In this document: piece by piece, positions 2 through 47,186 of the stretch
Position numbering within the stretch: the first letter of the stretch is position 1
Layout of the letters: the number at the start of each line of letters is the position of its first letter
Source of the DNA: an uncultured Anaerolineaceae bacterium
GTDB taxonomy: Bacteria; Chloroflexota; Anaerolineae; Anaerolineales; UBA4823
DNA: 64,000 bases
Direction: 5' to 3'
Assembly: GCA_964354345.1 (NCBI GenBank)
Contig: CAYGZL010000032.1
Coordinates: 128,684-192,683 of the forward strand
The notes under the pieces: generated by a model
The model's database searches: none
The model's input: the letters and a program-made list of their open reading frames with translations, nothing else
Told to the model about the DNA's origin: nothing
Translations under genes and position numbers: made by a program

Positions 2-2680
2 GGCATGGTGCAATTTAAGGATGTCTTCCTGGGCACTGATACACGACCGTATTCACGGGCAGTAAACTCGCAGAAGTGTATGCGCGTGGCTGGCAAGCAT
101 AACGACCTGGAGGATGTCGGTCGGGATGACACACACCACACCTTTTTTGAGATGCTGGGAAACTGGTCCTTTGGCGATTACTATAAAAAGGAAGCCATTA
201 CCTGGGCCTGGGAACTACTCACTGAGGTATGGGGGCTACCCAAAGACCGCTTGTACGCGACCTGCTTTGAAGATGAAAAAGGCAAAATCGAACGAGACGA
301 CGAAGCCGCAATTAATTGGCGCCAGCAACCAGGTTTCAATCCAAACCATGTGCTGTTTTTTGGGCGAAAGGACAATTTCTGGGAAATGGCAGAGACCGGT
401 CCGTGTGGACCCTGCTCAGAAATCCACATTGATCGTGGGATCGAGTTTTGTAACCAACAAGATATCTCCGGGCATGTGTGCGGCGTCAACGGGGATTGCA
501 CTCGCTTCTTAGAACTGTGGAATCTGGTCTTTATCCAATATAATCGCCTGAGCCCAACCACTCTGGAACCACTGGCTGCCAAGCATGTGGACACTGGGAT
601 GGGCTTCGAGCGGATCGTGTCTGTGCTCCAGAATGTCGATTCTAACTATAAAACCGATGTCCTGGCACCCCTTATGGATATTGTTCAGCAATTAACCGGT
701 CATAGTGACATCGAACGACAGGAAAACCCGACCCCATATCGAGTGATTGCAGATCATGCGCGCGCCGCGGCGTTCTTGATCGCCGATGGCGTCGTTCCAG
801 GCAATGTCGGGCGTAACTATGTGTGCCGTATGATTATTCGTCGCGCGGCGCGTTTTGGTATGAAGATAGGCTTGAATCAACCTTTCCTGGCACAGGTTGC
901 CCAAAAGGGGATCGAAAATTATGGGAGTTTTTATCCAGAGTTAGCACGCAACCGCTCGGCGATCCTGACCAACCTGACCCGTGAAGAGGAACGCTTCCAG
1001 CGCACTGTCGAGAGTGGCCTTGCCAAGCTAGAGAACTTATTAGAAAAGCTGACCGCCAGTCGTGAACGCGATAGAACAATGCAGGAGGATGGTTCTGTTG
1101 TTTTATTTCTGCCTGGCGAGCAGGCTTTTGAGTTGTACGCGACTTACGGCCTCCCCCTGGAAATCACGCGCGATATCGCCCGTGAGCATAACCTCGATGT
1201 AGATGAAACTGGCTTTCGCCAGGCGATGGATCGCCATCGGCTGGCCTCCAGCGCGGGTGAAGCTTTTGGCTCTTTAGGAGGCAACGACGTTGATATTTAC
1301 CGGCAATTGCTGCAAGAGCAACAGGCGCTTGGGTTATTAGGTGCGGAGGGTGTCGATTTTCATCTATACGACCGAGTTGAGCTGCAACATGGATTGGAGC
1401 TGAGTGTGAAAGGACAGGTATTGGCCTTTGTGCGTGGTGGGGCTTCATCTCATGGTCAATTCGTTAACCAGGTTCAGACTGGTGAAAAGGTGGAAGTCTT
1501 GCTGGCTGAGACTTGCTTCTATGTGGAATCTGGCGGTCAGGTCTCGGATACGGGTACCATTCGGGCAGCCGATAGAAGCTGGGAAATTACTGTGACCGGC
1601 ATGCGTAAACCTGCTGCCGGAATCATCGTACATATCGGGGAGGTTTATCGTGGGCAACCAGCTGTTGGCGACTTATGTGTCGCCCAGGTGGATGTCGCAC
1701 GCCGGCAAGAGATCATGCGCAACCATACGGGCACACACCTGCTACATGCCGAGCTGCGCGCAGTTCTGGGTGAACATGCCCGGCAGGCAGGTTCACTGGT
1801 CGCCCCCGACCACTTGCGTTTCGACTTCACTCATCCGCAAGCGGTCGCCCCCGAGCAGTTAGAACGCATCCAGGCTGGCGTTAACCGGGCAATCCTGAGT
1901 AATTATCCTTTGCAAATTCAAGTCAAGCCACTCCACCAGGCAATGAGCGAAGGCGCTATGGCGCTTTTCGGCGAGAAATATGGCGATACAGTGCGCACGA
2001 TTAGCATCGGCGGTGAGCATCCCTTCTCTTACGAACTTTGCGGTGGTACACATGTCCCAGAAACTGGTGATATCGGCATATTACTGATCACGAGTGAGGG
2101 TAGCGCCGCGGCGGGCATCCGGCGTATCGAAGCCGTTACCGGGCGTGGCGCCTACGAACTCGTCCAGAGCCGATTCCAGGCATTGAAACGATCCGCCGAT
2201 TTGCTGGCAGCTCCGCCCGAGGAACTCCCTGCCCGAACAGAAATTATTCTGCAGGAGCTTAGCGAAGCACGCAAGCAGATTGCCACTCTACGCCGCGAGC
2301 TGGCTACCTATGAATTTAATCGTTCCCTGGATACTGTTCCGCTTATTGCAGGAGTGCCTGTGTTGACTGGCATACTTCCCAATGCTGACGCCGACACCTT
2401 GCGCCTGATGACTGACCGCTTCCGTCAGCATTTCCCGAGCGGGGTGGCGGTGTTGGGGAGTGTTGGCAGCGACGGGAAACCGATTTTGATCGCCGTTGTG
2501 ACTGAAGACCTGGTCAAACGCGGCCTGCACGCTGGAGAACTGGTGAAGTTCGCCGCTCAACCCTTGGGTGGAGGCGGGGGTGGACGACCGACTTTAGCCC
2601 AGGCTGGCGGTAAAGACGCCCGCCAGTTGGAAGCAGCGCTTAACAGTGTGTCAAGTTGGGTCGAAAACAAATTAAAATAA
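2..2680 (+). CDS. alaS: alanine--tRNA ligase, 5' end outside the window
   Basis: The ORF is open to the window edge. Motifs FEMLGNWSFGDYYK, editing-domain HTGTHLLH and CGGTHV, and the C-terminal GGGGGGRPxxAQAGG tract are typical of AlaRS. About 40 N-terminal residues are missing. Confidence 0.95.
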   Translation, partial: GMVQFKDVFLGTDTRPYSRAVNSQKCMRVAGKHNDLEDVGRDDTHHTFFEMLGNWSFGDYYKKEAITWAWELLTEVWGLPKDRLYATCFEDEKGKIERDDEAAINWRQQPGFNPNHVLFFGRKDNFWEMAETGPCGPCSEIHIDRGIEFCNQQDISGHVCGVNGDCTRFLELWNLVFIQYNRLSPTTLEPLAAKHVDTGMGFERIVSVLQNVDSNYKTDVLAPLMDIVQQLTGHSDIERQENPTPYRVIADHARAAAFLIADGVVPGNVGRNYVCRMIIRRAARFGMKIGLNQPFLAQVAQKGIENYGSFYPELARNRSAILTNLTREEERFQRTVESGLAKLENLLEKLTASRERDRTMQEDGSVVLFLPGEQAFELYATYGLPLEITRDIAREHNLDVDETGFRQAMDRHRLASSAGEAFGSLGGNDVDIYRQLLQEQQALGLLGAEGVDFHLYDRVELQHGLELSVKGQVLAFVRGGASSHGQFVNQVQTGEKVEVLLAETCFYVESGGQVSDTGTIRAADRSWEITVTGMRKPAAGIIVHIGEVYRGQPAVGDLCVAQVDVARRQEIMRNHTGTHLLHAELRAVLGEHARQAGSLVAPDHLRFDFTHPQAVAPEQLERIQAGVNRAILSNYPLQIQVKPLHQAMSEGAMALFGEKYGDTVRTISIGGEHPFSYELCGGTHVPETGDIGILLITSEGSAAAGIRRIEAVTGRGAYELVQSRFQALKRSADLLAAPPEELPARTEIILQELSEARKQIATLRRELATYEFNRSLDTVPLIAGVPVLTGILPNADADTLRLMTDRFRQHFPSGVAVLGSVGSDGKPILIAVVTEDLVKRGLHAGELVKFAAQPLGGGGGGRPTLAQAGGKDARQLEAALNSVSSWVENKLK

Positions 2681-2684
2681 AATT

Positions 2685-4892
2685 GTGGGAAGTCTGAGAT
2701 CTTTCGCCAGGGTCAGGATGAAAATCGCTTCACTCAAGATCAGTTTCTTGCCGAAAATCGCCGGTAAATATTCGCTGCAACCCGTAATGCTCCTGCTCGT
2801 ATGTCTGCTTGCATTCGGTTTACAGATTCCTTGGCTGGGTTATTATTGGGATGATTGGCCTGGCGCCTGGTTTTTACACCGTTTGGGTCCCGCAGGTTTC
2901 ACCCAAGTCTTTTCGGTTGACCGACCGGCCTTAGGCTGGCTATTCATGCTGACGACTGCGTTGATCGGAAAATCTACCCTGGGGTGGCAGCTCCTGGGTG
3001 TTTTGGCGCGCTGGTTGAGCTGCCTGGCTTTATGGAGATTGCTTCGGGCAGTCTGGCCAGAACGAATTACTCAGGCAACCTGGGTAACCTTGCTCTTCGC
3101 GGTGTATCCTGGTTTTAAACAGCAACACATTGCCATGACTTATAGCCATGATTGGTTAATCATGGCCGGATTTTTTCTATCACTGACGCTACAAATTTGG
3201 GCGGTGCGCAAGTTGTTGCGTGGGTCTGGTTGGTCGCGGAACAGAAGCAGTTGGTTTTTGTTCATCATCTCCTGGCTTCTTTCAGCTTATGCGATGTTCG
3301 CCGATGAATATTACTTCGGCCTGGAGCTGCTCCGACCAATCCTGCTTTGGCTGGTCTTCTCAGAACAAGGCGACTCGCTTCGCCAACGCTTGAAACGCAC
3401 ACTTCTAAATGAACTCCCCTACGCCATCAGTGTCGCTCTTTTTTTGTTCTGGCGTTTGTGGATCCACATCAGTCCACGTGGTCAGGTACAGGTCTTTGAA
3501 CGCCTGGTGCAAAATCCACTGGGTGGCTTTGTGACACTCTTGACAACTGTATTAACTGACACCTTTCGGTCTAGTTTTAGCGCCTGGAGCGAAATATTTA
3601 ATTTCCCGAAGATGTTGAGCCTGGGTATCATCCCTTCGGTCTTGTATGGGATTACGACAATCATTGGTGTCGTACTTTGCCTGCTGTATTTGAAATACAC
3701 CACTCGCAGTGATACTGCTTTGGCTGCACGAAGCTGGAGCCTGAGTGCAATCATCATCGGTCTGCTGGCGCTATTTGCAGGAGGCATTCCCTTCTGGGTC
3801 ACTTATCAGCCAATTGGGTTAAGTTTTCCCTGGGACCGTTTTACATTGCCGATGATCTTCGGAACCAGCCTGCTCCTGACCGGCCTATTACAACTATTAA
3901 TCCCCAAAACAGGGTTGAGGATCCTGTTCTTAAGCATTATGCTTGGACTGGCCACCGGGTTGCATGTGACCAATGGCAACCTGTATCGGAGGGAGTGGGC
4001 TGCCCAAAAAACCATGTTTTGGCAAATCACCTGGCGCGCTCCCGGGATACAGCCAGGTACAGTGCTGCTGACAACCGAGCTGCCCTTCACTTATTTTAGC
4101 GACAACTCCTTGACCGCGCCTCTGAACTGGATATACGAGCCGCAAACAAAAAATCCTCAGAATATCCAGAGAACGAGTTCGATCGATCGCCTGAGTCTAA
4201 GAATGGATTACCTGTTTTATGTGGTTGAATCGCGCCTGGGTTTCCGCTTGCCCAGTTTAGAAAAAGACTTGCCCATTGAACAACCTTACCGTACACTCAC
4301 ATTTTATGGATCTACATCTCAGGCGCTGGTTGTGTATGTAAATCCCCCGGCTTGTCTGAGAATCATTGATCCCGTCGTGGATGCACGTCTGCCGCAGAAA
4401 CCCAATTATCTGGCAGAAATGCTGCCGCTATCGAACCTGAACACGATTTTACCTGATGCGGATCCACCTGCCCAACCACCAGCTGCGATCTTTGGTAGTG
4501 AGCCAGAACCCGACTGGTGTTATTATTTTGAGAAAGCCGACCTGGCTCGACAACTTGGCGACTGGTCGCAAGTAGTCAACCTGGGAGAACAAGCATTCAA
4601 CCTAAACCAACGATTGTATGAGGTGAACGCGCCTGAATTGACTCCTTACATCGAAGGATATGCACATCTGGGACAATGGCAGGAGGCCCAACAATTGACT
4701 CAGCAAGCCTATCAATTATCAACCCGGATGCAACGCATGTTGTGCGCCACCTGGGGCAGGATTGCCCAAAGCACCTCACCGGATGGGGCTCAACAAGCTT
4801 CACTGGCTGAAATCAGAACCAGCCTGAAATGCACCGAGCTAAGCGGCCAAGATAGGATGACTACCTCGCTACTCTCAGGACAGGTCCCTTGA
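2685..4892 (+). CDS. large polytopic membrane protein, GT-C-like glycosyltransferase candidate (paralog 1 of 3)
   Basis: 735-aa ORF starting at GTG 2685 (alternative ATG 2718), 4 nt after the alaS stop. The N-terminal ~480 aa are rich in hydrophobic helices. An acidic GYYWDDWPG motif follows the first helix. YPGFKQQ, DRFTLP and FWQITWRAPG are shared with the next two ORFs. The C-terminal ~200 aa are soluble and carry WCYYFEKADLARQ. Confidence 0.6.
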   Translation: MGSLRSFARVRMKIASLKISFLPKIAGKYSLQPVMLLLVCLLAFGLQIPWLGYYWDDWPGAWFLHRLGPAGFTQVFSVDRPALGWLFMLTTALIGKSTLGWQLLGVLARWLSCLALWRLLRAVWPERITQATWVTLLFAVYPGFKQQHIAMTYSHDWLIMAGFFLSLTLQIWAVRKLLRGSGWSRNRSSWFLFIISWLLSAYAMFADEYYFGLELLRPILLWLVFSEQGDSLRQRLKRTLLNELPYAISVALFLFWRLWIHISPRGQVQVFERLVQNPLGGFVTLLTTVLTDTFRSSFSAWSEIFNFPKMLSLGIIPSVLYGITTIIGVVLCLLYLKYTTRSDTALAARSWSLSAIIIGLLALFAGGIPFWVTYQPIGLSFPWDRFTLPMIFGTSLLLTGLLQLLIPKTGLRILFLSIMLGLATGLHVTNGNLYRREWAAQKTMFWQITWRAPGIQPGTVLLTTELPFTYFSDNSLTAPLNWIYEPQTKNPQNIQRTSSIDRLSLRMDYLFYVVESRLGFRLPSLEKDLPIEQPYRTLTFYGSTSQALVVYVNPPACLRIIDPVVDARLPQKPNYLAEMLPLSNLNTILPDADPPAQPPAAIFGSEPEPDWCYYFEKADLARQLGDWSQVVNLGEQAFNLNQRLYEVNAPELTPYIEGYAHLGQWQEAQQLTQQAYQLSTRMQRMLCATWGRIAQSTSPDGAQQASLAEIRTSLKCTELSGQDRMTTSLLSGQVP

Positions 4893-4896
4893 GTCT

Positions 4897-7044
4897 ATGC
4901 TCGCGTTAAAGAAACTCCATTTTGGTGTATGGTCGGTTCCAGGTGCACTTTTATTGCTCTGCATCGGAGCCTTCGGCTGGTTAATCCCCTGGTTGGGGTT
5001 TTATCAAGACGACTGGGTAGTCATCTGGTTTGCACGGACCTTCGGCTCACAGGTATTTATTGATTTTTTTGCTAAAGAGCGCCCTTTCCTGGCAGGCATC
5101 TACATGGTCAGCACATGGCTGATCGGCGATTCTGCCATCGGTTGGCAGATCTTCGGTCTCCTGGGCAGATGGGTGGCTGCTCTGGCTGCCTGGTGGACGC
5201 TACGTTCCCTCTGGCCCAAAAAACCGTTACAAGTATTGGGAGTCGTATTCCTTTTCACGATCTACCCCGGTTTTAAACAGCAATACGTGTCTGTGCTTTA
5301 CAGCCAGGATTTCCTGATCCTGGCAGCCATGATCGCCTCTTTAGGTCTGACCATCCATGCCGTTCGCAGCGCAAGGCAGGGGAAGATTTGGCGGGCAGCC
5401 GGACTGACTGTGTTGGCATTAATCCTGACAGCGTTCGCTGATTTTTCGTCAGAATATTTCTTCGGCATGGAGCTGTTCCGCCCCCTCTTTATCTGGCTCG
5501 TCGTTGGTGAACAACACACCCTAATCCGGCAACGACTGCTGCGTGCGTTGAAGTACTGGTTACCTTACCTGGCACTAACCGGCATCTTCTTGGTATGGCG
5601 GTTGTTCATCTTCCAGTATGTCACTTATCAACCTCAGCTTGCCATGAATATCAGCTCCACTCCATGGGTGACTATTCAACGGTTAGCTCAAACGATTATC
5701 GAAGACTCCTACGAAACGGTTGCGTTAGCCTGGTTTCAAACCCTGGACATCGCCAGGATGGGGGAATTTAGTTTCGCGACCATGCTACTGCGCTGGTTAG
5801 TGGTCTGTGGGAGCGCAGGTCTGGTCGTTTTTTACCTGATACACCTGCAAAAAAGCATCTCTTTGCGCCTCACTCAAGACAAGCCTGGTGATCCGAACAA
5901 TCTCCCAGCCAAAACAGATATACAAAACAACGCCGGTGAAAACAAAGAGATCCTTAATGATTCTCAGAATACCGCATGGAGTAAACAAGCGATCCTGATC
6001 GGAGGGCTTTCTTTGCTGATTTCAGGATGGCCATTCTGGTTCACCAACCTGAGTATTGGGATTGAAATCCCCTACGACCGGTTTACTCTTCCCTATATGT
6101 TGGGTGTCAGCATACTTATCATTGGGATCCTGGAATGGCTCATCAGAACGCCATTCCAACGGATCTTAATCATCGGACTTCTCGTCGGATTGACCATACC
6201 TACTCACCTCAAGATCGCCAATTCCTTCCGGCAGATCCATAATCAGCAAGCGTCTTTATTCTGGCAACTTGCTTGGCGAGCGCCTGGGTTAAAGCAAGGC
6301 ACCCTGTTGCTAATGAACTCCTTTCCATTTCCTTACACCGGCGCTATGTCGTTAGGTGCGATCACGAATTGGATCTATGCGGATCTTCCACACTACCCCA
6401 CCATGGATTATGATTTCATCTTTATCCAGGATAAACTTGGGAATATCTTACCCGCCCTAGAAAAAGGCTTACCGATCGTACGCCCTTTCCGCTCAGTAAC
6501 TTATACTGGCTCGACTTCTGAAGCTCTGGTCATGCACCTTCCAGAGAATGGTTGTTTACGAATCCTCGATCCCCAACGAGATCTGAACATGCCAGCACTC
6601 CCCTTGTTGACTTCCCAGGCAATTCCCATTTCCAACCTGGAGCAGATTACAGCCTCTGGAACAGAAGCTGCTCAGCGCGTTCGTCAGCTTTTTGGTTCTG
6701 AACCCACGCATGGCTGGTGCTACTACTACGAAGTGGCAGAGCTGGCGCGCCAACAACGAGACTGGAAGCAAGTCGCTTCACTAGCTGATCAAGCGCTAAA
6801 CCTGAAGGTAAAATATTATGAAATCAATGCCACCGAATTTGCCCCTTTTATAGAGGGGTATGCCATGACCGGTAAGTGGACCGAGGCACGCCGCATCACT
6901 CTGGAGGCCTACCGTCTGTCTGCTAAGGTGCGGCCTCTCCTATGCACAGTATGGGACGAGATTGCACAATCGGCTCCCGCGGATATGGCGGGTCAGGATG
7001 TGATTAAGGCCATGAAGGAAAAACTTGCATGCTCGAAAAATTGA
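4897..7044 (+). CDS. large polytopic membrane protein, GT-C-like glycosyltransferase candidate (paralog 2 of 3)
   Basis: 715-aa ORF starting 4 nt after paralog 1. Motifs GFYQDDWVV, YPGFKQQ, DRFTLP, FWQLAWRAPG and WCYYYEVAELARQ are collinear with the neighbouring ORFs. It has a unique hydrophilic loop (QDKPGDPNNLPAKTDIQNNAGENKE). Confidence 0.6.
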   Translation: MLALKKLHFGVWSVPGALLLLCIGAFGWLIPWLGFYQDDWVVIWFARTFGSQVFIDFFAKERPFLAGIYMVSTWLIGDSAIGWQIFGLLGRWVAALAAWWTLRSLWPKKPLQVLGVVFLFTIYPGFKQQYVSVLYSQDFLILAAMIASLGLTIHAVRSARQGKIWRAAGLTVLALILTAFADFSSEYFFGMELFRPLFIWLVVGEQHTLIRQRLLRALKYWLPYLALTGIFLVWRLFIFQYVTYQPQLAMNISSTPWVTIQRLAQTIIEDSYETVALAWFQTLDIARMGEFSFATMLLRWLVVCGSAGLVVFYLIHLQKSISLRLTQDKPGDPNNLPAKTDIQNNAGENKEILNDSQNTAWSKQAILIGGLSLLISGWPFWFTNLSIGIEIPYDRFTLPYMLGVSILIIGILEWLIRTPFQRILIIGLLVGLTIPTHLKIANSFRQIHNQQASLFWQLAWRAPGLKQGTLLLMNSFPFPYTGAMSLGAITNWIYADLPHYPTMDYDFIFIQDKLGNILPALEKGLPIVRPFRSVTYTGSTSEALVMHLPENGCLRILDPQRDLNMPALPLLTSQAIPISNLEQITASGTEAAQRVRQLFGSEPTHGWCYYYEVAELARQQRDWKQVASLADQALNLKVKYYEINATEFAPFIEGYAMTGKWTEARRITLEAYRLSAKVRPLLCTVWDEIAQSAPADMAGQDVIKAMKEKLACSKN

Positions 7045-9122
7045 AATTTCGTTCGTGGACATTTCCACTTACCTTACTCTTGCTATCCATCTTGTGTTTC
7101 GGTTTACTTATCCCCTGGTTAGGATTTTACCAGGATGACTGGTACTTAATTTGGCTGTCGCATTTTTTCGGCGCAAATATTTTCTTCCCTTTTTTCGAAA
7201 ACCAACGCCCAATTCTCGCGTTGGTATACATTTTTACAACGAAGTTGGTTGGAACCTCCGCCGTGGGCTGGCAAATCTTTGGCTTACTCACCCGCTGGCT
7301 AGCCGCGCTGTCAGTCTGGTGGGCATTGAAACTGGCCTGGCCCAATCGTCCAAAACAAGTGGCCTGGATTACCGTGTTATTCCTCGTCTACCCTGGTTTT
7401 CAAGAGCACTTTGTCGCGGTTGTCTACAGCCAGAATTACCTCCTGATTACAGCCTCTTTGATCGCTTTGGGTTTGTCTTTATGGGTTGTGCGTAATCAAA
7501 CCAGGTTGACCATCCCTTTAACCATACTGGGAGTGTCTCTATCGCTATTGAGCGTATTTTCGTCCGAGTATTTCTTCGGTTTAGAATTTTTTCGCCCGTT
7601 GCTATTATGGGTGGTAGTCGGAGAGAAAATCAGTAGTCTCTGGCAACGCTTATCCAAAACATTGCTCTATTGGGCGCCTTACCTGGCAGCCTTGATCTTC
7701 TTCCTCGTCTGGCGTATTTTTATTTTTAAGTTTCCGACTTACCAGCCAAAGCTGGCCCAACAATTCGTCAGCGGTCCCTCGAATACTATCCTGACCATGG
7801 CGCAAACCGTGATCCAGGACTTCTTCGATGTCAGCCTGTTTGCCTGGACACAAACCCTGAATTTTGTCCGGACCGTCGAGCCTACCCTGCTTCTCGTGGT
7901 AATTAAATGGGTCATCCTCCTGGTAGGCGCAGCACTCACAATTTTCTACTTATCTAAATTTGTTGGAAAAGACGAAGAACCTCTCGAAGCGTCAGCTTCA
8001 ATAAAACCATCGCCTAGCTGGGCAATCCAGGCAATTATGATTGGGGTATTTTCCGTAATTATCACCGGGTGGCCGTTCTGGTTTGCGGGGTTGGAGATTG
8101 AGTTAGATATTTCACAGGAGCGTTTCACTCTGGCTTTCATGCTGGCTGTCAGTATCATGCTCGTTGGCCTGATCGAATTGTTCATTAAAACTGATCGCCA
8201 AAAAATTGTCATCATTGGTGTGATGGCTGGCCTCGCAATGGGCTGGCAATTAAAAGTGGCAGAGACCTTTCGGGAAGCTCATGCTGGTCAAGAAACATTC
8301 TTCCAGCAGCTGGTATGGCGCGCCCCTGGTTTGAAAAGCGGTACATTGCTTTTAACGAATCCACTGCCGATTAATTACAGTGGTGCAAATTCGCTAGCTG
8401 CTCCACTGAATTGGATTTACGCTCAAAATTACCAATATCCCAACATGGAATACGAGCTATTTTACATCCCGGATAAGCTAGGAAACGAACTTCCAGCTTT
8501 ACAGAATGGCCTGCCGATCACGAAACGATACGGTGTGATCACCTACCATGGCTCGACTTCCCAATCCCTGGTCGTTTATTTCGAACCGCCCGGCTGTGTC
8601 CTGGTGCTGGATCCGGCGGTCTATGGTGAAACTCCCATCAATGGATTGGATCAGCCTTCAATTTCGATTCCACGTCTGCCCGACTCAATTAACACCGCAG
8701 TGCCGATTTCACATGTTGGTCAAATTATCCCCTCCGCAGACATGCCCATCCACAACTTCCAGGAAATATTTGGCCAATCTACAACCTCAAATTGGTGTTA
8801 TTATTTCGAAAAAGCAGACCTGGCCCGGCAGTTTAGCGATTGGCCAACAGTCGTAGCGTTAGGCGACGAAGCAGCCCGCCAAAGTTTACGCCCGGTCGCC
8901 AAACAAGAGATTGAATTTTTACCTTTCATCGAGGGGTATGCCCACCAGGGAAACTGGAAACAGGCAGCGCGCCTGACGCGATTGACAGCCGGCTCTGTAC
9001 CCGCCATGGTACCAATCCTATGCAGTACCTGGACGCGAATCCAGCAAAACACCTCACCCGGCATTGAGCGAGATACGTATATTTCCAATTTCTGGTCAGA
9101 TTATGGATGTGGAGAGCCGTAA
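7029..9122 (+). CDS. large polytopic membrane protein, GT-C-like glycosyltransferase candidate (paralog 3 of 3)
   Basis: 697-aa ORF overlapping paralog 2 by 16 nt. Motifs GFYQDDWYL, YPGFQEH, ERFTLA, FQQLVWRAPG and WCYYFEKADLARQ. Confidence 0.6.
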   Translation: MLEKLKFRSWTFPLTLLLLSILCFGLLIPWLGFYQDDWYLIWLSHFFGANIFFPFFENQRPILALVYIFTTKLVGTSAVGWQIFGLLTRWLAALSVWWALKLAWPNRPKQVAWITVLFLVYPGFQEHFVAVVYSQNYLLITASLIALGLSLWVVRNQTRLTIPLTILGVSLSLLSVFSSEYFFGLEFFRPLLLWVVVGEKISSLWQRLSKTLLYWAPYLAALIFFLVWRIFIFKFPTYQPKLAQQFVSGPSNTILTMAQTVIQDFFDVSLFAWTQTLNFVRTVEPTLLLVVIKWVILLVGAALTIFYLSKFVGKDEEPLEASASIKPSPSWAIQAIMIGVFSVIITGWPFWFAGLEIELDISQERFTLAFMLAVSIMLVGLIELFIKTDRQKIVIIGVMAGLAMGWQLKVAETFREAHAGQETFFQQLVWRAPGLKSGTLLLTNPLPINYSGANSLAAPLNWIYAQNYQYPNMEYELFYIPDKLGNELPALQNGLPITKRYGVITYHGSTSQSLVVYFEPPGCVLVLDPAVYGETPINGLDQPSISIPRLPDSINTAVPISHVGQIIPSADMPIHNFQEIFGQSTTSNWCYYFEKADLARQFSDWPTVVALGDEAARQSLRPVAKQEIEFLPFIEGYAHQGNWKQAARLTRLTAGSVPAMVPILCSTWTRIQQNTSPGIERDTYISNFWSDYGCGEP

Positions 9123-9125
9123 ACG

Positions 9126-10100
9126 ATGAATGTAGTCACACTTTCCCCCGGTTTATCAGTAGTTGTCCCGGTTTATAACAGTGCAGAGACTCTGGCTGAG
9201 CTAACTACGCGACTGGCCAAAGTGTTGCCAGGACTGGTCACACAATATGAGTTAATCCTGGTCAATGATGGCAGCCAGGATAAGAGCTGGGAAATAATTC
9301 TGGAATTAACCAGGATCTACCCCTGGATCCGGGCGATTAACTTGATGCGGAACTACGGCCAGCATAACGCCCTCTTGTGCGGGATTCGAAGCGCGCGCTT
9401 CGATCTCATCGTTACGATGGATGACGATCTACAACATCCCCCAGAAGAAATTTATAAACTACTCGCTAAACTGGCGGAGGGCTATGATGTGGTGTATGGG
9501 ATTCCTCAAAGAATGCCCCATTCCTGGTGGCGTAATTTATTCTCGGTGATTATCAAGCGCGTCCTGGCTTATGTAATGGGGGTTAAAACTGTGCGCGACT
9601 TTGCAGCCTTCCGCGCCTTGCGCACCCGGCTTCGCCGCGCCTTCGAAAATTACCAAAACCCCAATGTCTTAATTGATGTTTTACTTTCATGGGGCACGCA
9701 TCGTTTCACCACAACGGTCGTTAACGAGAATCCTCGGCCGGCTGGGCGATCGAACTACAGCCTTTCACGGCTGGTCCAATACACTATGGTAGTCATTACC
9801 GGCTTTAGCACCTTCCCGTTGCGCCTGGCGAGTGTGGTCGGATTCATCTTTACTCTGTTCGGCATTGGGGTATTTCTATACGTTGTCGCCATCTATTTTC
9901 TGGTGGGCAGTATGCCAGGATTTCCATTCCTGGCATCACTGGTTTCGTTATTTAGCGGAACCCAGCTTTTCGCGCTGGGTATCTTCGGCGAATATTTAGC
10001 GCGCATCTTTGATCGCAGTATGGATCGCCCTCCGTATGTGGTTGAAGAGGATCTGAAACTATCTCCAGAGGTACAAACCTCCGCGGACGCTGAATCCTGA
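9126..10100 (+). CDS. GT2 polyprenyl-phosphate glycosyltransferase (ArnC/GtrB-like)
   Basis: SVVVPVYN, NDGSQD, NYGQHNAL, DDDLQHPPEE and EGYDVV, plus two C-terminal TM helices and GEYLARIF. It is collinear with E. coli ArnC as I recall it. Confidence 0.8.
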   Translation: MNVVTLSPGLSVVVPVYNSAETLAELTTRLAKVLPGLVTQYELILVNDGSQDKSWEIILELTRIYPWIRAINLMRNYGQHNALLCGIRSARFDLIVTMDDDLQHPPEEIYKLLAKLAEGYDVVYGIPQRMPHSWWRNLFSVIIKRVLAYVMGVKTVRDFAAFRALRTRLRRAFENYQNPNVLIDVLLSWGTHRFTTTVVNENPRPAGRSNYSLSRLVQYTMVVITGFSTFPLRLASVVGFIFTLFGIGVFLYVVAIYFLVGSMPGFPFLASLVSLFSGTQLFALGIFGEYLARIFDRSMDRPPYVVEEDLKLSPEVQTSADAES

Positions 10101-10105
10101 CCCTT

Positions 10106-10807
10106 ATGCAGTGTGTCATTCTTCAGCCCTCTTACATCCCCTGGCGAGGATATTTCGACCAGATTTACCAGGCTGATGTCTTTGTATTTTACGATGATGT
10201 GCAATACGATAAACACGGCTGGCGGAATCGCAACCGGATCAAAACCAACCAGGGCCTCCAATGGCTGACCATCCCTGTCCAATCCAGCGGGAATGTCACC
10301 GAACACATTCCCATCAACCAGATCCAAATTAACTGGCAGCAGCCATGGAACCGCAAACATTGGGCTTCTATCCAACAGGCCTATAGGAAAGCCCCCTATT
10401 TTCATACGTACGCGCCTGTACTTGAGGTTTATTACCAACGTCATGCCGAGCTGCTTGCAGATTTCACGATTGATCTGACCATGGCTCTAGCGCGTGAACT
10501 TGGGATCACGAAAACACGCTTCTTACGCTCTTCAAGTCTGGCTGTCCAAGGGGTGAGGACTGATCGGCTAATCGCTATCTTAAAGTTGGTCGGCGCGGAT
10601 CATTACTTGAGCGGACCTTCCGCTCGAGACTATCTTGAAGAAAGGAAATTCCAGGCCAGTGGGATCAGTTTATCTTATATGGTCTACGATTATCCACAAT
10701 ATCCCCAACTTTACCCCCCCTATGATCCTCAGGTATCTATCCTGGATTTATTGTTCATGACCGGGCCGGATGCGCTACAATATATTATCAACCAACCGAC
10801 AGTCTGA
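10106..10807 (+). CDS. WbqC-family protein (polysaccharide-cluster protein of unknown biochemical role)
   Basis: The N-terminus ILQPSYIPWRGYFDQI..FYDDVQYDKHGWRNRNRIKT..WLTIPV matches my recollection of the WbqC (PF08889) signature. Confidence 0.65.
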   Translation: MQCVILQPSYIPWRGYFDQIYQADVFVFYDDVQYDKHGWRNRNRIKTNQGLQWLTIPVQSSGNVTEHIPINQIQINWQQPWNRKHWASIQQAYRKAPYFHTYAPVLEVYYQRHAELLADFTIDLTMALARELGITKTRFLRSSSLAVQGVRTDRLIAILKLVGADHYLSGPSARDYLEERKFQASGISLSYMVYDYPQYPQLYPPYDPQVSILDLLFMTGPDALQYIINQPTV

Positions 10808-10828
10808 TCCGATACAGATGAAATAAAC

Positions 10829-11968
10829 ATGGATACATATACCATCGGTTTCAATAAACCCACCCTGGTCGGCACAGAGTTTGAGTATATCCGCCAGGCT
10901 TTTGAAAATGAGCATGTCTCTGGAGATGGCATCTTCACGAAAAAATGCCATGCCCTGCTTGAAAACCAATTGGGCATACCCAAGGTGCTTTTAACGACTT
11001 CATGCACCCATGCCCTGGAACTGGCCATTTTGCTGCTAGATCCCCAACCTGGTGATGAGTTCATCCTGCCGTCTTTCACCTTTGTCTCGACTGCGAATGC
11101 CTTCGTATTGCGTGGTGCGCGGCCAGTCTTTATTGATATCCGGCCAGACACCCTTAACCTGGATGAGAATCAGCTCGAACCTCTAATTACATCACGCACG
11201 CGCGCCATCCTACCCGTGCATTATGCAGGAGTCGGCTGCGAAATGGATGCTATTCTCGAAATCGCAAACGGTTATCAAATCCCTATCGTAGAGGATAATG
11301 CGCATGGCTTGTTTGGGAAATATAAAGGGCGTTACTTAGGTACTTTCGGATGCATGGCAACCCAAAGTTTTCACGAAACCAAGAACTTTACCTGCGGTGA
11401 AGGTGGGGCGCTGCTTATCAACAATCCTGCCTATTCAGAACGTGCAGAAATCATCCGAGAGAAAGGTACTAATCGCAGCCGTTTCTTCCGTGGTCAAGTG
11501 GACAAGTACACCTGGGTCGACGTTGGGTCGAGCTACCTGCCTTCCGAAATTCTGGCAGCGTTCTTATATGCGCAGCTTGAAGCCCGCCAAGCCATTCAGA
11601 CCACGCGTAAATATATTTGGGATTATTACCAGCAGAACTTGGCGGATTGGGCTTCCCGGCATGGGATCCGGCTGCCAGTGGTGCCGGATTACTGCGAGCA
11701 GCCCTACCACATGTTTTACATGCTGCTCCCCTCACTTGAGAAACGCCAGGCGTTGATCGCGCACCTGAAGTCGAAAGGAATTCAAGGCGTTTTTCATTAT
11801 TTACCCCTACACCTCTCAGACATGGGTTTAAAATTCGGAGGGAAGGTCAGCGACTGTACGGTAACTCAAGATGTCAGCGATCGGCTGTTACGTTTACCCT
11901 TCCACAACCAATTGACTCAGTCAAACCAGGATCGCGTGATTGAAGCCATCCATGAGTTCATAATTTAA
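10829..11968 (+). CDS. DegT/DnrJ/EryC1-family PLP aminotransferase, WecE-like (NDP-4-keto-6-deoxyhexose 4-aminotransferase)
   Basis: SFHETKNFTCGEGGALLIN, REKGTNRSRFFRGQVDKYTWVDVGSSYLPSE and MFYMLLP closely parallel E. coli WecE. Confidence 0.85.
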   Translation: MDTYTIGFNKPTLVGTEFEYIRQAFENEHVSGDGIFTKKCHALLENQLGIPKVLLTTSCTHALELAILLLDPQPGDEFILPSFTFVSTANAFVLRGARPVFIDIRPDTLNLDENQLEPLITSRTRAILPVHYAGVGCEMDAILEIANGYQIPIVEDNAHGLFGKYKGRYLGTFGCMATQSFHETKNFTCGEGGALLINNPAYSERAEIIREKGTNRSRFFRGQVDKYTWVDVGSSYLPSEILAAFLYAQLEARQAIQTTRKYIWDYYQQNLADWASRHGIRLPVVPDYCEQPYHMFYMLLPSLEKRQALIAHLKSKGIQGVFHYLPLHLSDMGLKFGGKVSDCTVTQDVSDRLLRLPFHNQLTQSNQDRVIEAIHEFII

Positions 11969-11974
11969 AGTCTA

Positions 11975-12421
11975 ATGAACCTAAACCACCAACCGCGCCG
12001 CATTCTAGCTGTTGATCCGGGGGAAAAACGCCTGGGGATCGCTTTAAGTGATCCAACGGGATTGATTGCCAATCCACTAACAATCATCGAACATATTTCC
12101 CGACCCCTCGACGCGGCGCGAATCGCTCACCTGGCACTGGAAAACGAAGCGATTTGCATCATTGTTGGAGAGGCATTAAATGAGGATGGTCAGCCAACCC
12201 CACAAAGCCGGCGCGCTGAACGATTAGCAGTGGCAATCCGAGAGCAATGCGAGATCCCAGTCGTGCTTTGGGACGAAAGCGGTAGTACCCGGGCAGCCCG
12301 CAACGCACGCCTGGCCTTAGGCGTCCGTCGCAAGAGGCGCAAGGGACACCTGGATGAACTCGCTGCAACCTACATTCTACAAACCTACCTGGACGCTCAT
12401 CCCTATTCTAGCGATATGTGA
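11975..12421 (+). CDS. ruvX: YqgF/RuvX putative pre-16S rRNA nuclease / Holliday-junction-resolvase-like protein
   Basis: 148 aa. ILAVDPGEKRLGIALSD at the N-terminus and WDESGSTRAAR are typical of YqgF. Confidence 0.85.
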   Translation: MNLNHQPRRILAVDPGEKRLGIALSDPTGLIANPLTIIEHISRPLDAARIAHLALENEAICIIVGEALNEDGQPTPQSRRAERLAVAIREQCEIPVVLWDESGSTRAARNARLALGVRRKRRKGHLDELAATYILQTYLDAHPYSSDM

Positions 12422-12433
12422 GTTTGCTTCAAA

Positions 12434-13573
12434 ATGCGTCGCCTGCTCTCACTCCTCGTTTCACTATCCCCAATCTTATTGATTATCCTGTGCCTGGCCG
12501 CGATTGTCCTGGGATGGTTCGCCTGGCGTCTACCTGAGCAAGCGGAAACCACCTTCGGCCCGTCTGCCCCCAGCTTGGGCTTAATTCAACGGGTATACCT
12601 GTCTGCACAACTCACGTTGTTGTCAGATAACCTGACTAAAGCCAATGAACCCAACGGAACAGATCGCTCATTTTCGATTCAATTGGGCGAGTCTACTCTC
12701 TCCATCACCAATCGCCTCGAACAGGAAGGTTTTATTTCGAGCTCCCAGGCGCTGCGGACCTATCTGGTTTATTCTGGTCTGGATACTACCTTACAAACGG
12801 GCGACTACCATCTCAGCCCGGCCATGACTCCATTGGAAATAACCCAAAAATTTCAGAACGCCAGTTCTACCGATGTAAAATTCCGCATTTTAGCAGGTTG
12901 GCGCATCGAAGAAATCGCCGCTGCTTTACCCACCTCGGGGTTGGATATTACACCCGAGGCGTTTCAACAAGCAGCTTACCATCCTTATTTGCCACCTGAT
13001 CTAACCATTAATCTCCCAGATGGCGCGTCGCTCGAGGGTTTCTTATATCCTGATCTGTATCAGTTCCCTCGATCGATCGGGGTTAATGATTTTCTCAAGG
13101 GTCTGGTGGTCCGTTTCTCAGAGCAGAACAATGAGGAACTATCCCAAGGCTTTGAAAAGCAAGGATTAAGCGTTTTCGAGGCAGTCACCCTGGCCTCCAT
13201 TATCCAACGCGAAGCGATTGTTGAAGAAGAAATGCCGATGATTGCCTCTGTCTTTTATAACCGCCTGGCAACTGGAATGAAGCTTGACTCTGATCCAACC
13301 GTCCAATATGCACTGGGTTATATACCAGAGAGAAAGGGATGGTGGAAAAATCCTCTCAGCCTGGAAGATCTCCAGGTAAATTCACCCTATAATACTTATC
13401 TGAATAAAGGCCTGCCTCCTGGACCGATTTCTAATCCGAGTCTGAACGCTATCATGGCAGTCGCTTTTCCTGCTCAGACTCCCTATTTTTACTTCCGGGC
13501 AGCCTGTGATGGCTCGGGATTGCATTTATTTTCTAAGACATTTCAGGAACATTTAAATAAAGGCTGCCCGTAA
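12434..13573 (+). CDS. mltG: endolytic murein transglycosylase MltG (YceG family)
   Basis: N-terminal TM helix. ASIIQREA, VFYNRL..MKLDSDPTVQYALG and SPYNTYLNKGLPPGPISNPS are YceG-like motifs. Confidence 0.9.
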   Translation: MRRLLSLLVSLSPILLIILCLAAIVLGWFAWRLPEQAETTFGPSAPSLGLIQRVYLSAQLTLLSDNLTKANEPNGTDRSFSIQLGESTLSITNRLEQEGFISSSQALRTYLVYSGLDTTLQTGDYHLSPAMTPLEITQKFQNASSTDVKFRILAGWRIEEIAAALPTSGLDITPEAFQQAAYHPYLPPDLTINLPDGASLEGFLYPDLYQFPRSIGVNDFLKGLVVRFSEQNNEELSQGFEKQGLSVFEAVTLASIIQREAIVEEEMPMIASVFYNRLATGMKLDSDPTVQYALGYIPERKGWWKNPLSLEDLQVNSPYNTYLNKGLPPGPISNPSLNAIMAVAFPAQTPYFYFRAACDGSGLHLFSKTFQEHLNKGCP

Positions 13574-13614: not shown

Positions 13615-14340
13615 TCAAGGCTGGTTATACATCCCATGTAAATCGTTCAGGCGTATTTTCAAGAGTTCGCGTACCATGTTGAAAGTATCTTGAACTGGTT
13701 TTACTTTACTCTGGCCACGGTAATACCAATCGATAGGTACCTCCTGGATCGTATACCCCCATTTCCGCGCGATGAATAATATTTCAACATCAAAACCCCA
13801 ACCCGGTATGGTTTGCGCCCGGAACAACTGATGGGCTACATCCGCCCGAAAACACTTAAATCCACATTGGGTATCTTGCAACCCGGCGACAGCCAGCCAA
13901 CGAACGAGAGTATTAAATACCCGACCCATCACATGCCTGTATTCCGGTTCACCGATCCGCCGAGCACCGGGGGTTTCACGCGAGGCAATCAAGATCGGGG
14001 TTGTATGAGCGAACAGCGCCGAAAACTTGGTAAATTCGGCAATAGGCATTGAGAGATCCGAATCGCAGAGGAAAACCCATTCTCCTCGGCTGGCCAGCAC
14101 GCCATTCCGGCAAGCATGACCTTTCCCCCCATGACTCACCCGGAGCAAATTTAAGTCGGGGTGTTTTTGTATTGCTTCCTGAACGATCTGCGCGGTATGA
14201 TCCACGCTCCCATCATCAACGACAGTGACCTCGAATGAATAATTCTGATGGTTATAGAATTCCATCGTGTCTTGCAGCGTTATTGCCAGCCGGGCTGCCT
14301 CGTTATATGCCGGGATTACCACCGAGAGGAATGGTTTCAT
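13615..14340 (-). CDS. GT2 glycosyltransferase, soluble, polyprenol-phosphate hexosyltransferase-like
   Basis: 241 aa. LSVVIPAYNE, VDDGSVDHT, CDSDLS (DxD) and QCGFKCF motifs. Confidence 0.75.
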   Translation of the reverse strand: MKPFLSVVIPAYNEAARLAITLQDTMEFYNHQNYSFEVTVVDDGSVDHTAQIVQEAIQKHPDLNLLRVSHGGKGHACRNGVLASRGEWVFLCDSDLSMPIAEFTKFSALFAHTTPILIASRETPGARRIGEPEYRHVMGRVFNTLVRWLAVAGLQDTQCGFKCFRADVAHQLFRAQTIPGWGFDVEILFIARKWGYTIQEVPIDWYYRGQSKVKPVQDTFNMVRELLKIRLNDLHGMYNQP

Positions 14341-36599: not shown

Positions 36600-37205
36600 A
36601 TGACTATCCAATCTCCCTTGTTCTTCGGTGAGAATATTTGCCTGGGACCGATCGACCACGAAAAGGATCCGGAAATTGAAACCAGGTGGACTAACGATCC
36701 TGAATATCTCCGCATGATCTATCCTGAACCGGCTCGTCCACTATCTCAAGCTCAGATCAAGAAGAAATACGAGGCCATCGAGAAAGCCATTCAAGAAGAG
36801 CGTAACCAGTTTTACTTCACGATCCGCATGCGTTCAGACGACCATCTGATTGGCTTTGCCCAGATCTTCTGGATCGAATGGACACATGGCGCTGCGAATA
36901 TCCGCCTGGGCATTGGCGAACCTCAAGATCGTAGGCACGGCTATGGTTCTGAGATCCTGCGCTTGTTGCTGCGTTTCTCTTTTACCGAGCTAAATCTTTA
37001 TCGCCTGACTGCGTCTGTCCCAGAATATAATCAGGCAGCTTTACGCTTTTTCAAAAAAAGTGGATTCATTGAAGAAGTACGGCGGCGCCAGGCTTTGCAA
37101 CGCGATGGACGCCGTTGGGATAACCTTCTTCTGGGCATCTTACGCCAGGAATGGGAAGCTCATCTGCCTGAGCATTCTGATATACGCCAGGAAGATGGTG
37201 TATGA
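36600..37205 (+). CDS. GNAT N-acetyltransferase (RimJ/RimL-like), tandem copy 1
   Basis: RRHGYGSEILRLLLRFSFTELNLYRL...YNQAALRFFKKSGF is the GNAT motif A/B region. It is a paralog of the next two ORFs. Confidence 0.8.
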   Translation: MTIQSPLFFGENICLGPIDHEKDPEIETRWTNDPEYLRMIYPEPARPLSQAQIKKKYEAIEKAIQEERNQFYFTIRMRSDDHLIGFAQIFWIEWTHGAANIRLGIGEPQDRRHGYGSEILRLLLRFSFTELNLYRLTASVPEYNQAALRFFKKSGFIEEVRRRQALQRDGRRWDNLLLGILRQEWEAHLPEHSDIRQEDGV

Positions 37206-37771: not shown

Positions 37772-37794
37772 TTGATCTATAGAAGGCGCTTTGT

Positions 37795-38397: not shown

Positions 38398-38403
38398 AAT
38401 CCC

Positions 38404-47178: not shown

Positions 47179-47186
47179 TCGTTAGC

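Follow-up and report, generated by a model that had tools for sequence, protein, structure and literature searches.

Six genes lie between alaS and ruvX-mltG in an uncultured Anaerolineaceae bacterium, and they raise the questions of what they make and whether they were inserted into a housekeeping neighborhood, as the initial annotation had supposed. We analyzed them within a window of 64,000 nucleotides, the whole stretch of DNA considered here, and the ORF list confirmed all six open reading frames (ORFs), tightly packed on the plus strand, where they had been placed earlier. The upstream flank, alaS (positions 5 to 2680, plus strand; TIGR00344, 794 bits), is cut at its 5' end by the window start and ends 4 nt before the block; in locus L001, where alaS is complete, its product has 937 amino acids (aa). 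The block itself, all on the plus strand, encodes three large membrane proteins, M1 (2685 to 4892), M2 (4897 to 7044), and M3 (7029 to 9122), followed by an ArnC/GtrB-type polyprenyl-phosphate glycosyltransferase (GT2; 9126 to 10100), a WbqC-family protein (10106 to 10807), and a WecE-type PLP aminotransferase (10829 to 11968). On the same strand, ruvX (11975 to 12421; PF03652) starts 6 nt past the aminotransferase gene and precedes mltG (12434 to 13573; PF02618). Within the block, neighboring genes are 3 to 21 nt apart except for M2 and M3, which share 16 nt, and from alaS through mltG no gap among the nine genes exceeds 21 nt. Besides, promoter-like and terminator-like sites between alaS and mltG were no more common than in shuffled sequence. 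The block is probably cotranscribed constitutively.

The M family has approximately 3,400 cluster representatives (clusters at 50% identity), and we compared the block with the 78 genomic loci closest to it. All 78 belong to Chloroflexota, mostly to Anaerolineae, and about half of them show the order alaS, M (one to three copies), GT2, a modifier gene, WecE, further genes, ruvX, and mltG, a recurrence that the initial annotation itself had named as counting against an insertion. The M proteins of these conserved-order loci are only 33 to 43% identical to M2, and the neighbors beyond, a spermine-synthase-like gene upstream of alaS and HATPase and lon genes downstream, are syntenic as well. Furthermore, the GC content, GC3, and codon-usage distance of the block fall within the range found elsewhere in the window, and no integrase or mobile-element genes were found at the block edges in the ORF list or by profile search. 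The region from 7029 to 9122 (M3) is indeed more AT-rich than alaS, as had been remarked (GC, 0.479 versus 0.538; GC3, 0.533 versus 0.553), but the difference is trivial, with housekeeping genes such as mltG (GC, 0.484) equally low.

The slightly lower GC of M3 could nevertheless be read as a trace of a recent horizontal acquisition that placed an island between alaS and ruvX, and two further observations point the same way. In Bacillus and other Firmicutes, the genes alaS, ruvX, and mltG lie next to one another, and a related cassette occurs on proteobacterial plasmids: an Azospirillum plasmid carries WecE, WbqC, and ArnC-like GT2 genes together with a methyltransferase and a small EamA transporter, and a Rhizobium plasmid carries a similar gene set. 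We regard a recent island as very improbable and rejected it, given the order shared by so many Anaerolineae loci with such divergent M proteins, the synteny outside alaS and mltG, the unremarkable composition, and the block edges free of mobile-element genes. Thus, Anaerolineae have long carried the block as a native feature; the supposed insertion is contradicted as a recent event, and an ancient one at the base of Anaerolineae is possible.

The three large proteins are, judged from their sequences, old tandem paralogs of one family. M1 (735 aa from GTG at 2685, or 724 aa from the ATG at 2718 chosen by gene callers), M2 (715 aa), and M3 (697 aa) share 39% (M1 and M2), 43% (M2 and M3), and 37% (M1 and M3) identity. 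M1 clusters with alaS-type M proteins that occur as single copies in other genomes, and M3 clusters with M proteins adjoining GT2-WbqC elsewhere (e.g., in locus L003); a protein identical to M3 was found on metagenome contigs with the gene order unchanged. M1 to M3 matched neither the Pfam and NCBIfam profiles, including those of GT-C families, nor PDB sequences. Among 56 members of the family, none matched a GT-C Pfam model even at an E value of ≤10, and only weak TPR_2 matches appeared; a profile of the M family retrieved only TPR/PPR repeats from the PDB sequences. Membership in the known GT-C sequence families (PMT, PMT_2/ArnT, STT3, YfhO, DUF2723, and others) was accordingly rejected. Within the 56 aligned sequences, which include M1 to M3, Asp-38, Asp-39, Arg-62, Pro-63, Glu-186, and Arg-195 (M2 numbering) are invariant, as are four cysteines in the C-terminal domain, and M1 retains every one of these residues, the Asp-Asp (DD) pair included. 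The Azospirillum cassette also encodes a 527-aa hypothetical protein that shares the LGFYxDDW...RP...WQ loop with M, in the form LGFYHDDW; by hhalign it matched M with a probability of 92.8% (E value, 3.9e-7), which makes it a distant relative.

An AlphaFold (AF2) model of M2 (pLDDT, 93.9; pTM, 0.92) comprises approximately 11 transmembrane (TM) helices followed by a C-terminal alpha/beta and TPR-like domain; a crude scan found 9 to 10 hydrophobic segments in each large protein. In a Foldseek search of the PDB, the best matches of M2 were STT3 (8agc_A; E value, 5.5e-4; probability, 1.0; and also 6s7t_A) and ArnT (5ezm; E value, 8.9e-3; probability, 1.0), followed by Pmt4 (9i5k; probability, 0.94) and by EmbA/B, AftA, and AftD (probabilities, 0.51 to 0.66). 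Membrane-domain matches with a probability of ≥0.9 were GT-C enzymes without exception. The E values for GT-C matches are modest (5.5e-4 to 0.7), and the kinship must be distant because the global TM-scores are low (0.23 to 0.33). Asp-38 and Asp-39 come straight after TM1, and the N terminus of M is positively charged; by the positive-inside rule and the four invariant cysteines, we infer that the DD pair lies in the first external loop. These observations support the assignment of the M proteins to the GT-C fold, with a predicted transferase activity. The acidic first-loop site that had been anticipated for the large proteins was thus present, and the label of three different GT-C-like transferases was apt as to the fold, whereas the three are paralogs of one family.

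Directly beside M, 67 of the 78 loci carry an ArnC-like GT2 gene, and they do so in three or more distinct arrangements; from this adjacency we predict that M uses a lipid-phosphate-linked sugar donor. The same coupling to a lipid-phosphate-sugar synthase tells against M being a transporter or a scaffold with a GT-C-like helical bundle rather than a glycosyltransferase. MFS transporters do appear as weak Foldseek matches of M2 (probability, ≤0.35), and the low TM-scores and the lack of any matching GT-C sequence model would suit such a role; all membrane-domain matches of high probability are GT-C enzymes, however, and the invariant DD pair sits at the exact place of the GT-C catalytic acids, which leaves a nonenzymatic function quite improbable. 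Somewhat less remote, yet still improbable, is an oligosaccharyltransferase-like activity, in which M would transfer an undecaprenyl diphosphate (Und-PP)-linked glycan made elsewhere to proteins such as those of an S-layer or sheath, and GT2, WbqC, and WecE would contribute a single sugar to that glycan or have nothing to do with it. The STT3 subunits at the head of the Foldseek list and the TPR-like repeats, a protein-binding module, are in keeping with it, but monophosphate-donor enzymes (ArnT, Pmt4, and Emb/Aft) matched with comparable scores. Besides, an initiating phosphoglycosyltransferase, a Wzx/PglK-type flippase, and further Leloir glycosyltransferases are all missing from the operon, and the adjacency of M and GT2 is a hallmark of systems based on undecaprenyl phosphate (Und-P)-linked monosaccharides.

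The GT2 itself (324 aa; PF00535, 3.3e-28) accords with an Und-P-monosaccharide system. It aligns end to end with the structures of ArnC (9hwj_A, 4.6e-51, residues 10 to 313 of 324) and GtrB (5ekp, 8e-46), and it combines a GT-A domain, with a DDD motif at residues 99 to 101, and C-terminal hydrophobic helices at roughly residues 223 to 284, as is typical of ArnC/GtrB-type enzymes and as had been proposed. The best NCBIfam matches, ArnC (1.4e-55) and PgfS (1.6e-48), are both under cutoff, and identity with ArnC proper (NF007986, the Und-P 4-deoxy-4-formamido-L-arabinose transferase) was rejected at 188.5 bits versus a cutoff of 529.

The proposed WecE-like nature of the aminotransferase (379 aa) was borne out at the equivalog level, with NF008687 at 569.1 bits (cutoff, 375) and TIGR02379 at 522.3 bits (cutoff, 434.85). 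Its PDB matches include Escherichia coli WecE (4piw, 1.7e-126) and ArnB (1mdo, 1.4e-49), and its substrate is presumably dTDP-4-keto-6-deoxyglucose. The WbqC-family protein (233 aa) belongs to PF08889 (1.8e-80; 270.3 bits versus a gathering cutoff of 21.3). It has 7,387 homologs, of which the best 120 are 67 to 76% identical and the named ones among these are from Anaerolineales. Its AF2 model (pLDDT, 91.8) is closest in fold to BshC (4wbd; probability, 0.97), with a weak E value of 1.7e-2. The slot between GT2 and WecE holds WbqC plus a methyltransferase in 25 loci, a GNAT in 16, WbqC alone in 5, and nothing in 4, and GNAT and WbqC occurred together in none of 53 loci. The GNAT of the slot best matched WecD, the dTDP-Fuc4N acyltransferase, over its full length (2.4e-29). 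WbqC thus appears to take the place of the WecD-like GNAT, and we propose it as a modifier of the dTDP-amino-sugar. It need not be the N-acylating enzyme, because the cassette from Azospirillum encodes a hexapeptide acetyltransferase alongside WbqC. The locus assigns this orphan family, which has thousands of members, a definite place in metabolism, one in which it is interchangeable with WecD.

Taken together, the GT-C fold with its DD pair, the ArnC/GtrB-like GT2, the WecE equivalog, and the adjacency of M and GT2 support the Arn/Gtr-type logic suggested at the outset, and we consider it likely that the block is a native, lipid-carrier-dependent glycosylation module of Anaerolineae that acts outside the cytoplasmic membrane and uses a rare amino sugar. 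In such a module, dTDP-4-keto-6-deoxy-D-glucose would be provided by RmlA and RmlB encoded elsewhere (no rmlA or rmlB was found among the scanned window ORFs), and the WecE homolog would convert it to a dTDP-4-amino-4,6-dideoxyhexose, the sugar being Fuc4N or perhaps its gluco isomer. WbqC might then modify this nucleotide sugar, for which the 4-amino group is the likeliest site, and GT2, as its homology suggests, would load the sugar on Und-P at the cytoplasmic face. The lipid-linked sugar would be carried across the membrane by a flippase encoded outside the block, neither the block nor the other scanned window ORFs containing GtrA, ArnE/F, or a similar protein. Finally, M1, M2, and M3, with an external, putatively disulfide-containing C-terminal domain with TPR-like repeats, would attach the sugar to at least one acceptor in the envelope.

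Why there are three M proteins admits several answers. Each paralog may have its own acceptor or position, or the three may act sequentially or form heteromers; the three acceptors or linkages deduced in the initial annotation are therefore one option only, since a single M copy suffices in many genomes. Alternatively, the three might jointly form an Emb/Aft-type polymerizing or branching machine, possibly heteromeric, that builds an amino-sugar homo-oligomer on a wall or lipid primer. The fold matches include EmbA/B, AftA, and AftD, the old paralogs each keep all invariant residues, and M varies from one to three copies across genomes with the same single GT2. Most genomes have a single M, however, so that one M appears to suffice for the basic function, and we consider a polymerizing machine unlikely, though less so than the oligosaccharyltransferase-like activity.

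With the module that we favor, the locus yields a specific pathway, open to experiment, by which a surface glycan conserved across Anaerolineae would be made. These bacteria abound in sediments, digesters, and wastewater sludge, and their envelope biochemistry, to our knowledge, has been little described. M further defines a sizeable GT-C-fold family, with its approximately 3,400 clusters, that current profile libraries miss. A more specific version is conceivable, and we put it forward only tentatively. M1 to M3 would be the first members of a GT-C family, perhaps of CAZy rank, that is typical of Anaerolineae and has distant LGFYxDDW relatives in proteobacterial WecE/WbqC/ArnC-like cassettes; the donor would be Und-P-4-acylamido-4,6-dideoxyhexose, of which we know of no description; WbqC would acylate the 4-amino group, for instance with an amino acid, by an ATP-dependent ligation like that of BshC/MshC; and the product would be a core, housekeeping-linked envelope decoration. 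If true, this would add to glycobiology both a lipid-linked donor and a GT-C family that are new, and it would explain the tight linkage of these genes to alaS, ruvX, and mltG in what looks like a constitutive operon.

Among known systems, the order of chemistry agrees with that of the Arn pathway (ArnB, ArnA, ArnC, ArnD, ArnE/F, and ArnT), which modifies lipid A with 4-amino-4-deoxy-L-arabinose. In both, the latter as predicted here for the block, a 4-amino sugar nucleotide is formed by a PLP aminotransferase and altered at its amine, after which the sugar is placed on Und-P by an ArnC-type GT2 and transferred outside by a GT-C protein. The block is nevertheless not an Arn operon, for ArnA (dehydrogenase/formyltransferase), the deformylase ArnD, and the flippase ArnE/F are absent from it and from the scanned window ORFs. 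Its predicted nucleotide sugar is based on a dTDP-6-deoxyhexose and that of Arn on a UDP-pentose, and M stands outside the family of ArnT and is modeled by no profile library. Chloroflexota are reported to lack LPS, so that lipid A is unlikely as the acceptor.

The pairing of a GT2 polyprenyl-phosphate sugar synthase with a GT-C protein is shared with GtrA/GtrB/GtrX, CsbB/GtcA/YfhO, PgfS/PgfM, and the Citrobacter GT136 system (PMC11127046; reviewed in PMC8035078). Unlike these three-component systems, the block has no flippase gene but three tandem GT-C paralogs, its predicted donor is a modified amino-dideoxyhexose with biosynthetic genes of its own in the block, and M is not YfhO, PMT_2, GT136, or any other modeled family. 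The Fuc4NAc branch of enterobacterial common antigen resembles the block in its WecE, which is matched at the equivalog level, and in the WecD-like GNAT that sister loci pair with WecE, for which WbqC stands in here. There, however, the cytoplasmic WecF uses dTDP-Fuc4NAc directly on an Und-PP-linked intermediate, whereas the sugar of the block is predicted to be placed alone on Und-P and transferred outside. Finally, the PMT/TMTC-type O-mannosyltransferases that contain TPR repeats share with M the GT-C domain, as the fold match to Pmt4 indicates, an acidic pair in loop 1 (the DE motif in PMT), and external TPR-like repeats. M differs from them in that it matches no PMT or PMT_2 model, in that its predicted donor is an amino-dideoxyhexose rather than mannose, and in that a protein acceptor is hypothetical.

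The nine genes from alaS to mltG lie on one strand, separated by gaps of 3 to 21 nt and by a single 16-nt overlap. Three large membrane proteins, M1 (2685-4892, +), M2 (4897-7044, +), and M3 (7029-9122, +), were placed by ORF listing, which together with profile scans also gave alaS (5-2680, +), an ArnC/GtrB-like GT2 (9126-10100, +), a WbqC-family protein (10106-10807, +), a WecE-type aminotransferase (10829-11968, +), ruvX (11975-12421, +), and mltG (12434-13573, +). This reproduces exactly the six-gene layout between alaS and ruvX-mltG described in the initial annotation; M1 may start at ATG 2718 instead of GTG 2685. Two metagenome contigs carry the identical locus. Promoter-like and terminator-like matches across the gene run, internal ones included, did not outnumber those found in shuffles of the sequence, and the run from alaS to mltG looks like one transcription unit.

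Scanning a single genome for each species gave at least 561 M relatives, and the best 78 loci were analyzed. These were from Chloroflexota throughout, the majority labeled Anaerolineae, and include those of the cultured Leptolinea tardivitalis YMTK-2 and Leptolinea sp. HRD-7. About half of the loci share the order alaS, M (1 to 3 copies), GT2, modifier gene, WecE, 0 to 3 extra genes, ruvX, and mltG, and also keep the flanks, with a spermine-synthase-like gene ahead of alaS and HATPase/lon on the downstream side. The second main context has M, GT2, WbqC, methyltransferase, and WecE at another chromosomal site, for example in Leptolinea and its relatives, and a few loci have the reversed order, GT2 then M. 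The ArnC-like GT2 directly adjoins an M gene in 67 of the 78 loci. Because the M proteins of these loci are only 33 to 43% identical to M2, the arrangement is old, and the triplication is ancient too, since M1 groups with the single-copy M proteins of alaS-type loci in a neighbor-joining tree, in which M2 and M3 form a separate deep clade. The initial annotation had taken the block for an insertion into a housekeeping neighborhood. We found no compositional foreignness: the block genes have a GC of 0.48 to 0.50 and a GC3 of 0.53 to 0.56, against 0.47 to 0.55 and 0.43 to 0.57 in the remaining window, their codon-usage distances are ordinary, and none of the three measures sets them apart from the flanks. 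The old, conserved arrangement and the flank-like composition leave practically no room for a recent genomic island. Thus, on the initial annotation's own terms, the block is an ancestral feature of this lineage and not an insertion, and it is still an uncharacterized system.

Several further genes were observed around these loci. A phage-integrase-family (tyrosine recombinase) gene at 22719-23636 (+), with modest scores and probably XerC/D-like, is 10 kb away and not at the edge of the block. An HATPase_c_4 gene with a weak SLFN_AlbA_2 match (15468-16862, -) shares 4 nt with the start of lon and is conserved at this place in many of the related loci. In many alaS-type loci (L004:13248-14768 and 28 others), the gene directly upstream of ruvX, after the glycosylation genes, encodes a conserved protein (about 503 aa) that is not present in the window; it exceeds the Pfam gathering cutoff for Baseplate_J (30.8 versus 21.1 bits), an odd family for a housekeeping operon, and has no NCBIfam match. 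In some alaS-type loci (L015:14154-16994 and relatives), a 429-aa protein with no Pfam match and a 517-aa sulfatase-like protein are encoded between WecE and ruvX. The latter scores slightly under the Pfam sulfatase cutoff; it would belong to the LtaS/EptA fold class and hints at a larger envelope-polymer locus.

M1, M2, and M3 share 37 to 43% pairwise identity over their full length. None of them matched Pfam or NCBIfam, so that the GT-C families named in the initial annotation were not recovered by profile search, and a Pfam search of 56 M-family members at an E value of ≤10 gave just weak TPR_2 matches (in 11 of the 56) and noise, e.g., DUF751. Single-sequence and profile searches of PDB sequences with M likewise gave no GT-C match; the profile matched designer PPR/TPR proteins. 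More than 531 homologs were found among 5.8 billion proteins, all unnamed and none with a Pfam domain, and the few with taxonomic labels were from Anaerolineae or Chloroflexi metagenome-assembled genomes. The profile of 56 members retrieved 3,401 cluster representatives among 1.84 billion, 1,713 of them at E ≤ 1e-30. These comparisons indicate that M1 to M3 are paralogs of one family for which there is no existing profile model. Invariant columns (M2 numbering) include G34, D38, D39, W40, R62, P63, W83, E186, and R195, as well as four cysteines (C553, C608, C683, and C712), and all of these residues are retained by M1, M2, and M3. Two unusual forms, each a possible fusion or assembly artifact, were also seen: a metagenomic homolog of 1,196 aa (P0001) and a 2.8-kb stop-to-stop ORF at the expected position of M and GT2 (L031:3348-6170).

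The GT-C assignment made in the initial annotation gained support from structure. An alignment-based AlphaFold model of M2 (pLDDT, 93.9; pTM, 0.92) comprises about 11 transmembrane helices (residues 1 to 461), a mixed alpha/beta domain (470 to 600), and a helical repeat domain (607 to 710). Its matches in the PDB were STT3 (8agc_A, E value of 5.5e-4, and 6s7t_A, 1.9e-3; probability, 1.0 for both), ArnT (5ezm, 8.9e-3; 1.0), Pmt4 (9i5k, 0.44; 0.94), EmbA/B (7bvc, 0.31; 0.66), AftA (8if8, 0.50; 0.51), and AftD (6w98, 0.69; 0.60). They are GT-C glycosyltransferases without exception, and transporters appeared with low probability only; that M is not a glycosyltransferase is very unlikely, even with the missing profile matches in mind. 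Global TM-scores against these structures were low (0.23 to 0.33), which makes M2 a remote relative within this fold class. The N terminus of M is positively charged, and in the alignment and the model the D38-D39 pair immediately follows the first transmembrane helix, opening a juxtamembrane helix. The catalytic acids of the GT-C enzymes PglB, ArnT, and PMT sit at such a position, and the acidic first-loop site anticipated from the initial reading is thus present as an invariant pair. The 11 helices and the four invariant cysteines predict an extracytoplasmic location for the C-terminal domain. The helical part of this domain is TPR-like on the basis of the weak TPR_2 matches, the profile matches to PPR/TPR proteins, and the TPR/PPR folds also found among the structure matches of M2.

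The window GT2 aligned end to end with the structures of ArnC (9hwj_A, 4.6e-51) and GtrB (5ekp, 8e-46) and has C-terminal membrane helices as in that subfamily; it falls far below the equivalog cutoffs of both ArnC and PgfS. These alignments indicate an enzyme of the ArnC/GtrB type. OST-like enzymes using Und-PP-glycans would share the STT3 matches of M2; ArnT was matched with the same probability and the ArnC-like GT2 is tightly coupled to M, and we consider this reading of M quite unlikely. An Emb/Aft-like polymerizing set, or heteromers, would suit the three paralogs and the EmbA/B, AftA, and AftD matches; this too seems unlikely. The aminotransferase exceeded two NCBIfam WecE cutoffs (569 versus 375 bits and 522 versus 435 bits) and matched WecE of E. 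coli in the PDB (1.7e-126).

We further compared the space between GT2 and WecE in the 53 loci holding both genes. This slot contains WbqC with a SAM methyltransferase in 25 loci, a GNAT acetyltransferase in 16, WbqC alone in 5 (the window being counted twice), and no gene in 4; the other 3 have a methyltransferase alone, WbqC with an unclustered ORF, or an unclustered ORF alone. In none of the 53 do GNAT and WbqC occur together. The best NCBIfam match of the GNAT, full length and under the family cutoff, was WecD (dTDP-4-amino-4,6-dideoxy-D-galactose acyltransferase; 2.4e-29). Sister loci thus encode WecE, a WecD-like enzyme, an ArnC-like GT2, and M, which implies a putative Und-P-linked donor of the Fuc4NAc type. 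In the window, the acetyltransferase is replaced by WbqC, and we infer that WbqC decorates the same sugar with an alternative substituent, probably at the amino group, with the caveat that a hexapeptide acetyltransferase coexists with WbqC in an Azospirillum plasmid cassette.

WbqC belongs to PF08889, a family with no known function, and the best 120 of its 7,387 homologs are 67 to 76% identical, the few named ones being from Anaerolineales. No sequence relatives were found in the PDB. The WbqC model (pLDDT, 91.8) has a Rossmann-like core and one notable structural match, BshC (4wbd; probability, 0.97; E value, 1.7e-2; rmsd, 4.1 Å over 164 columns), followed by weak matches to nucleotidyltransferases and class I tRNA synthetases. 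BshC is assigned to the addition of cysteine onto GlcN-malate in bacillithiol synthesis, and the likeness may serve as a lead for function. Sequence and fold searches give no support for a known formyl- or acetyltransferase. The wbq gene names come from the E. coli O121 O-antigen cluster, and the O121 antigen has Qui4N with an N-acetylglycyl group; an amino-acyl ligase role of WbqC would fit.

A tblastn search of plasmids with WbqC gave 63 records. On the Azospirillum brasilense plasmid NZ_CP059454.1 (L082, 6534-13797), WbqC, GT2, methyltransferase, acetyltransferase, rffA/WecE, EamA, and two hypothetical proteins are encoded together, and this cassette and that of Rhizobium sp. N731 (L085) both hold a small EamA transporter (ArnE/F-like in size in Azospirillum), WbqC, an ArnC-like GT2, SAM methyltransferases, a hexapeptide acetyltransferase, and rffA. 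The Azospirillum GT2 (323 aa) is 27% identical to the window GT2 over its full length. A rare 527-aa hypothetical protein of the Azospirillum cassette (7 homologs found; no Pfam match) opens with FLGFYHDDW...TRPLY, compared with PWLGFYQDDW...ERPFL in M. Its profile (8 homologs) aligned with that of M in the first external loop (hhalign probability, 92.8%; E value, 3.9e-7) and has an invariant Glu in NELFWF, comparable to SEYFFG in M. Thus, an LGFYxDDW membrane enzyme together with WecE, WbqC, and an ArnC-like GT2 forms a functional unit that recurs. Two hypothetical proteins of 613 aa from Rhizobium, encoded close to the plasmid cassette, proved to be unrelated to M.

The Arn/Gtr-type logic initially proposed is backed by the families and folds assigned to the proteins, by their invariant motifs, and by the coupling of the genes across genomes, and we regard such a pathway as fairly probable for the block. 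WecE would form a dTDP-4-amino-4,6-dideoxyhexose, WbqC would modify it, and GT2 would put the modified sugar on Und-P; a flippase would then carry the lipid-linked sugar across the membrane, where M1, M2, and M3 would pass it to one or more envelope acceptors. Flippase, rmlA, and rmlB genes are absent from the block and from about 40 scanned ORFs of the window. A DedA/VTT-domain membrane protein is encoded directly upstream of M in L022 (9342-9914) and seven other Leptolinea-type loci. DedA proteins are implicated in undecaprenyl-phosphate translocation, and by analogy this protein (as flippase or recycler) and the small EamA of the proteobacterial cassettes are candidate flippases. We lean slightly toward a protein acceptor, given that the external domain is TPR-like and that STT3 and PMT are among the fold matches. 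Lipid A would be a less likely acceptor, as Chloroflexota reportedly lack LPS. The proximity of mltG, initially thought suggestive, is uninformative because the backbone synteny is conserved.

Two more GT2 genes (13615-14340, -, and 14379-15407, -) are convergent on mltG. The 241-aa GT2 among them weakly matches, over its full length, dolichyl-phosphate hexose transferase, PpgS, and DPMS (5mlz), and four other loci (L025, L035, L039, and L077) have a homolog ahead of alaS; a possible role is that of a second lipid-phosphate-sugar synthase feeding some of the M paralogs. Also related to the envelope, elsewhere in the window, are a PAP2 phosphatase, possibly an Und-PP phosphatase (47067-47711, +), and an MGDG-synthase-like GT28 gene overlapping a gene with an N_BRCA1_IG domain (49671-51924, -). 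Three tandem GNAT (Acetyltransf_3) genes of about 190 to 200 aa are followed by an HAD hydrolase and an amidase (36600-39006, +).

The block is not an Arn operon, since it lacks ArnA, ArnD, and ArnE/F, which the Arn operon has, and its GT2 scores below the ArnC cutoff. Literature searches on WbqC, on Fuc4NAc with GT-C, and on Anaerolineae envelope glycosylation gave nothing specific, and neither the GT-C family of M, nor the predicted donor sugar, nor the alternation of WbqC and WecD is described in the libraries or literature searched. In its logic, the block resembles known multicomponent extracytoplasmic glycosylation systems (PMC11127046, PMC8035078).
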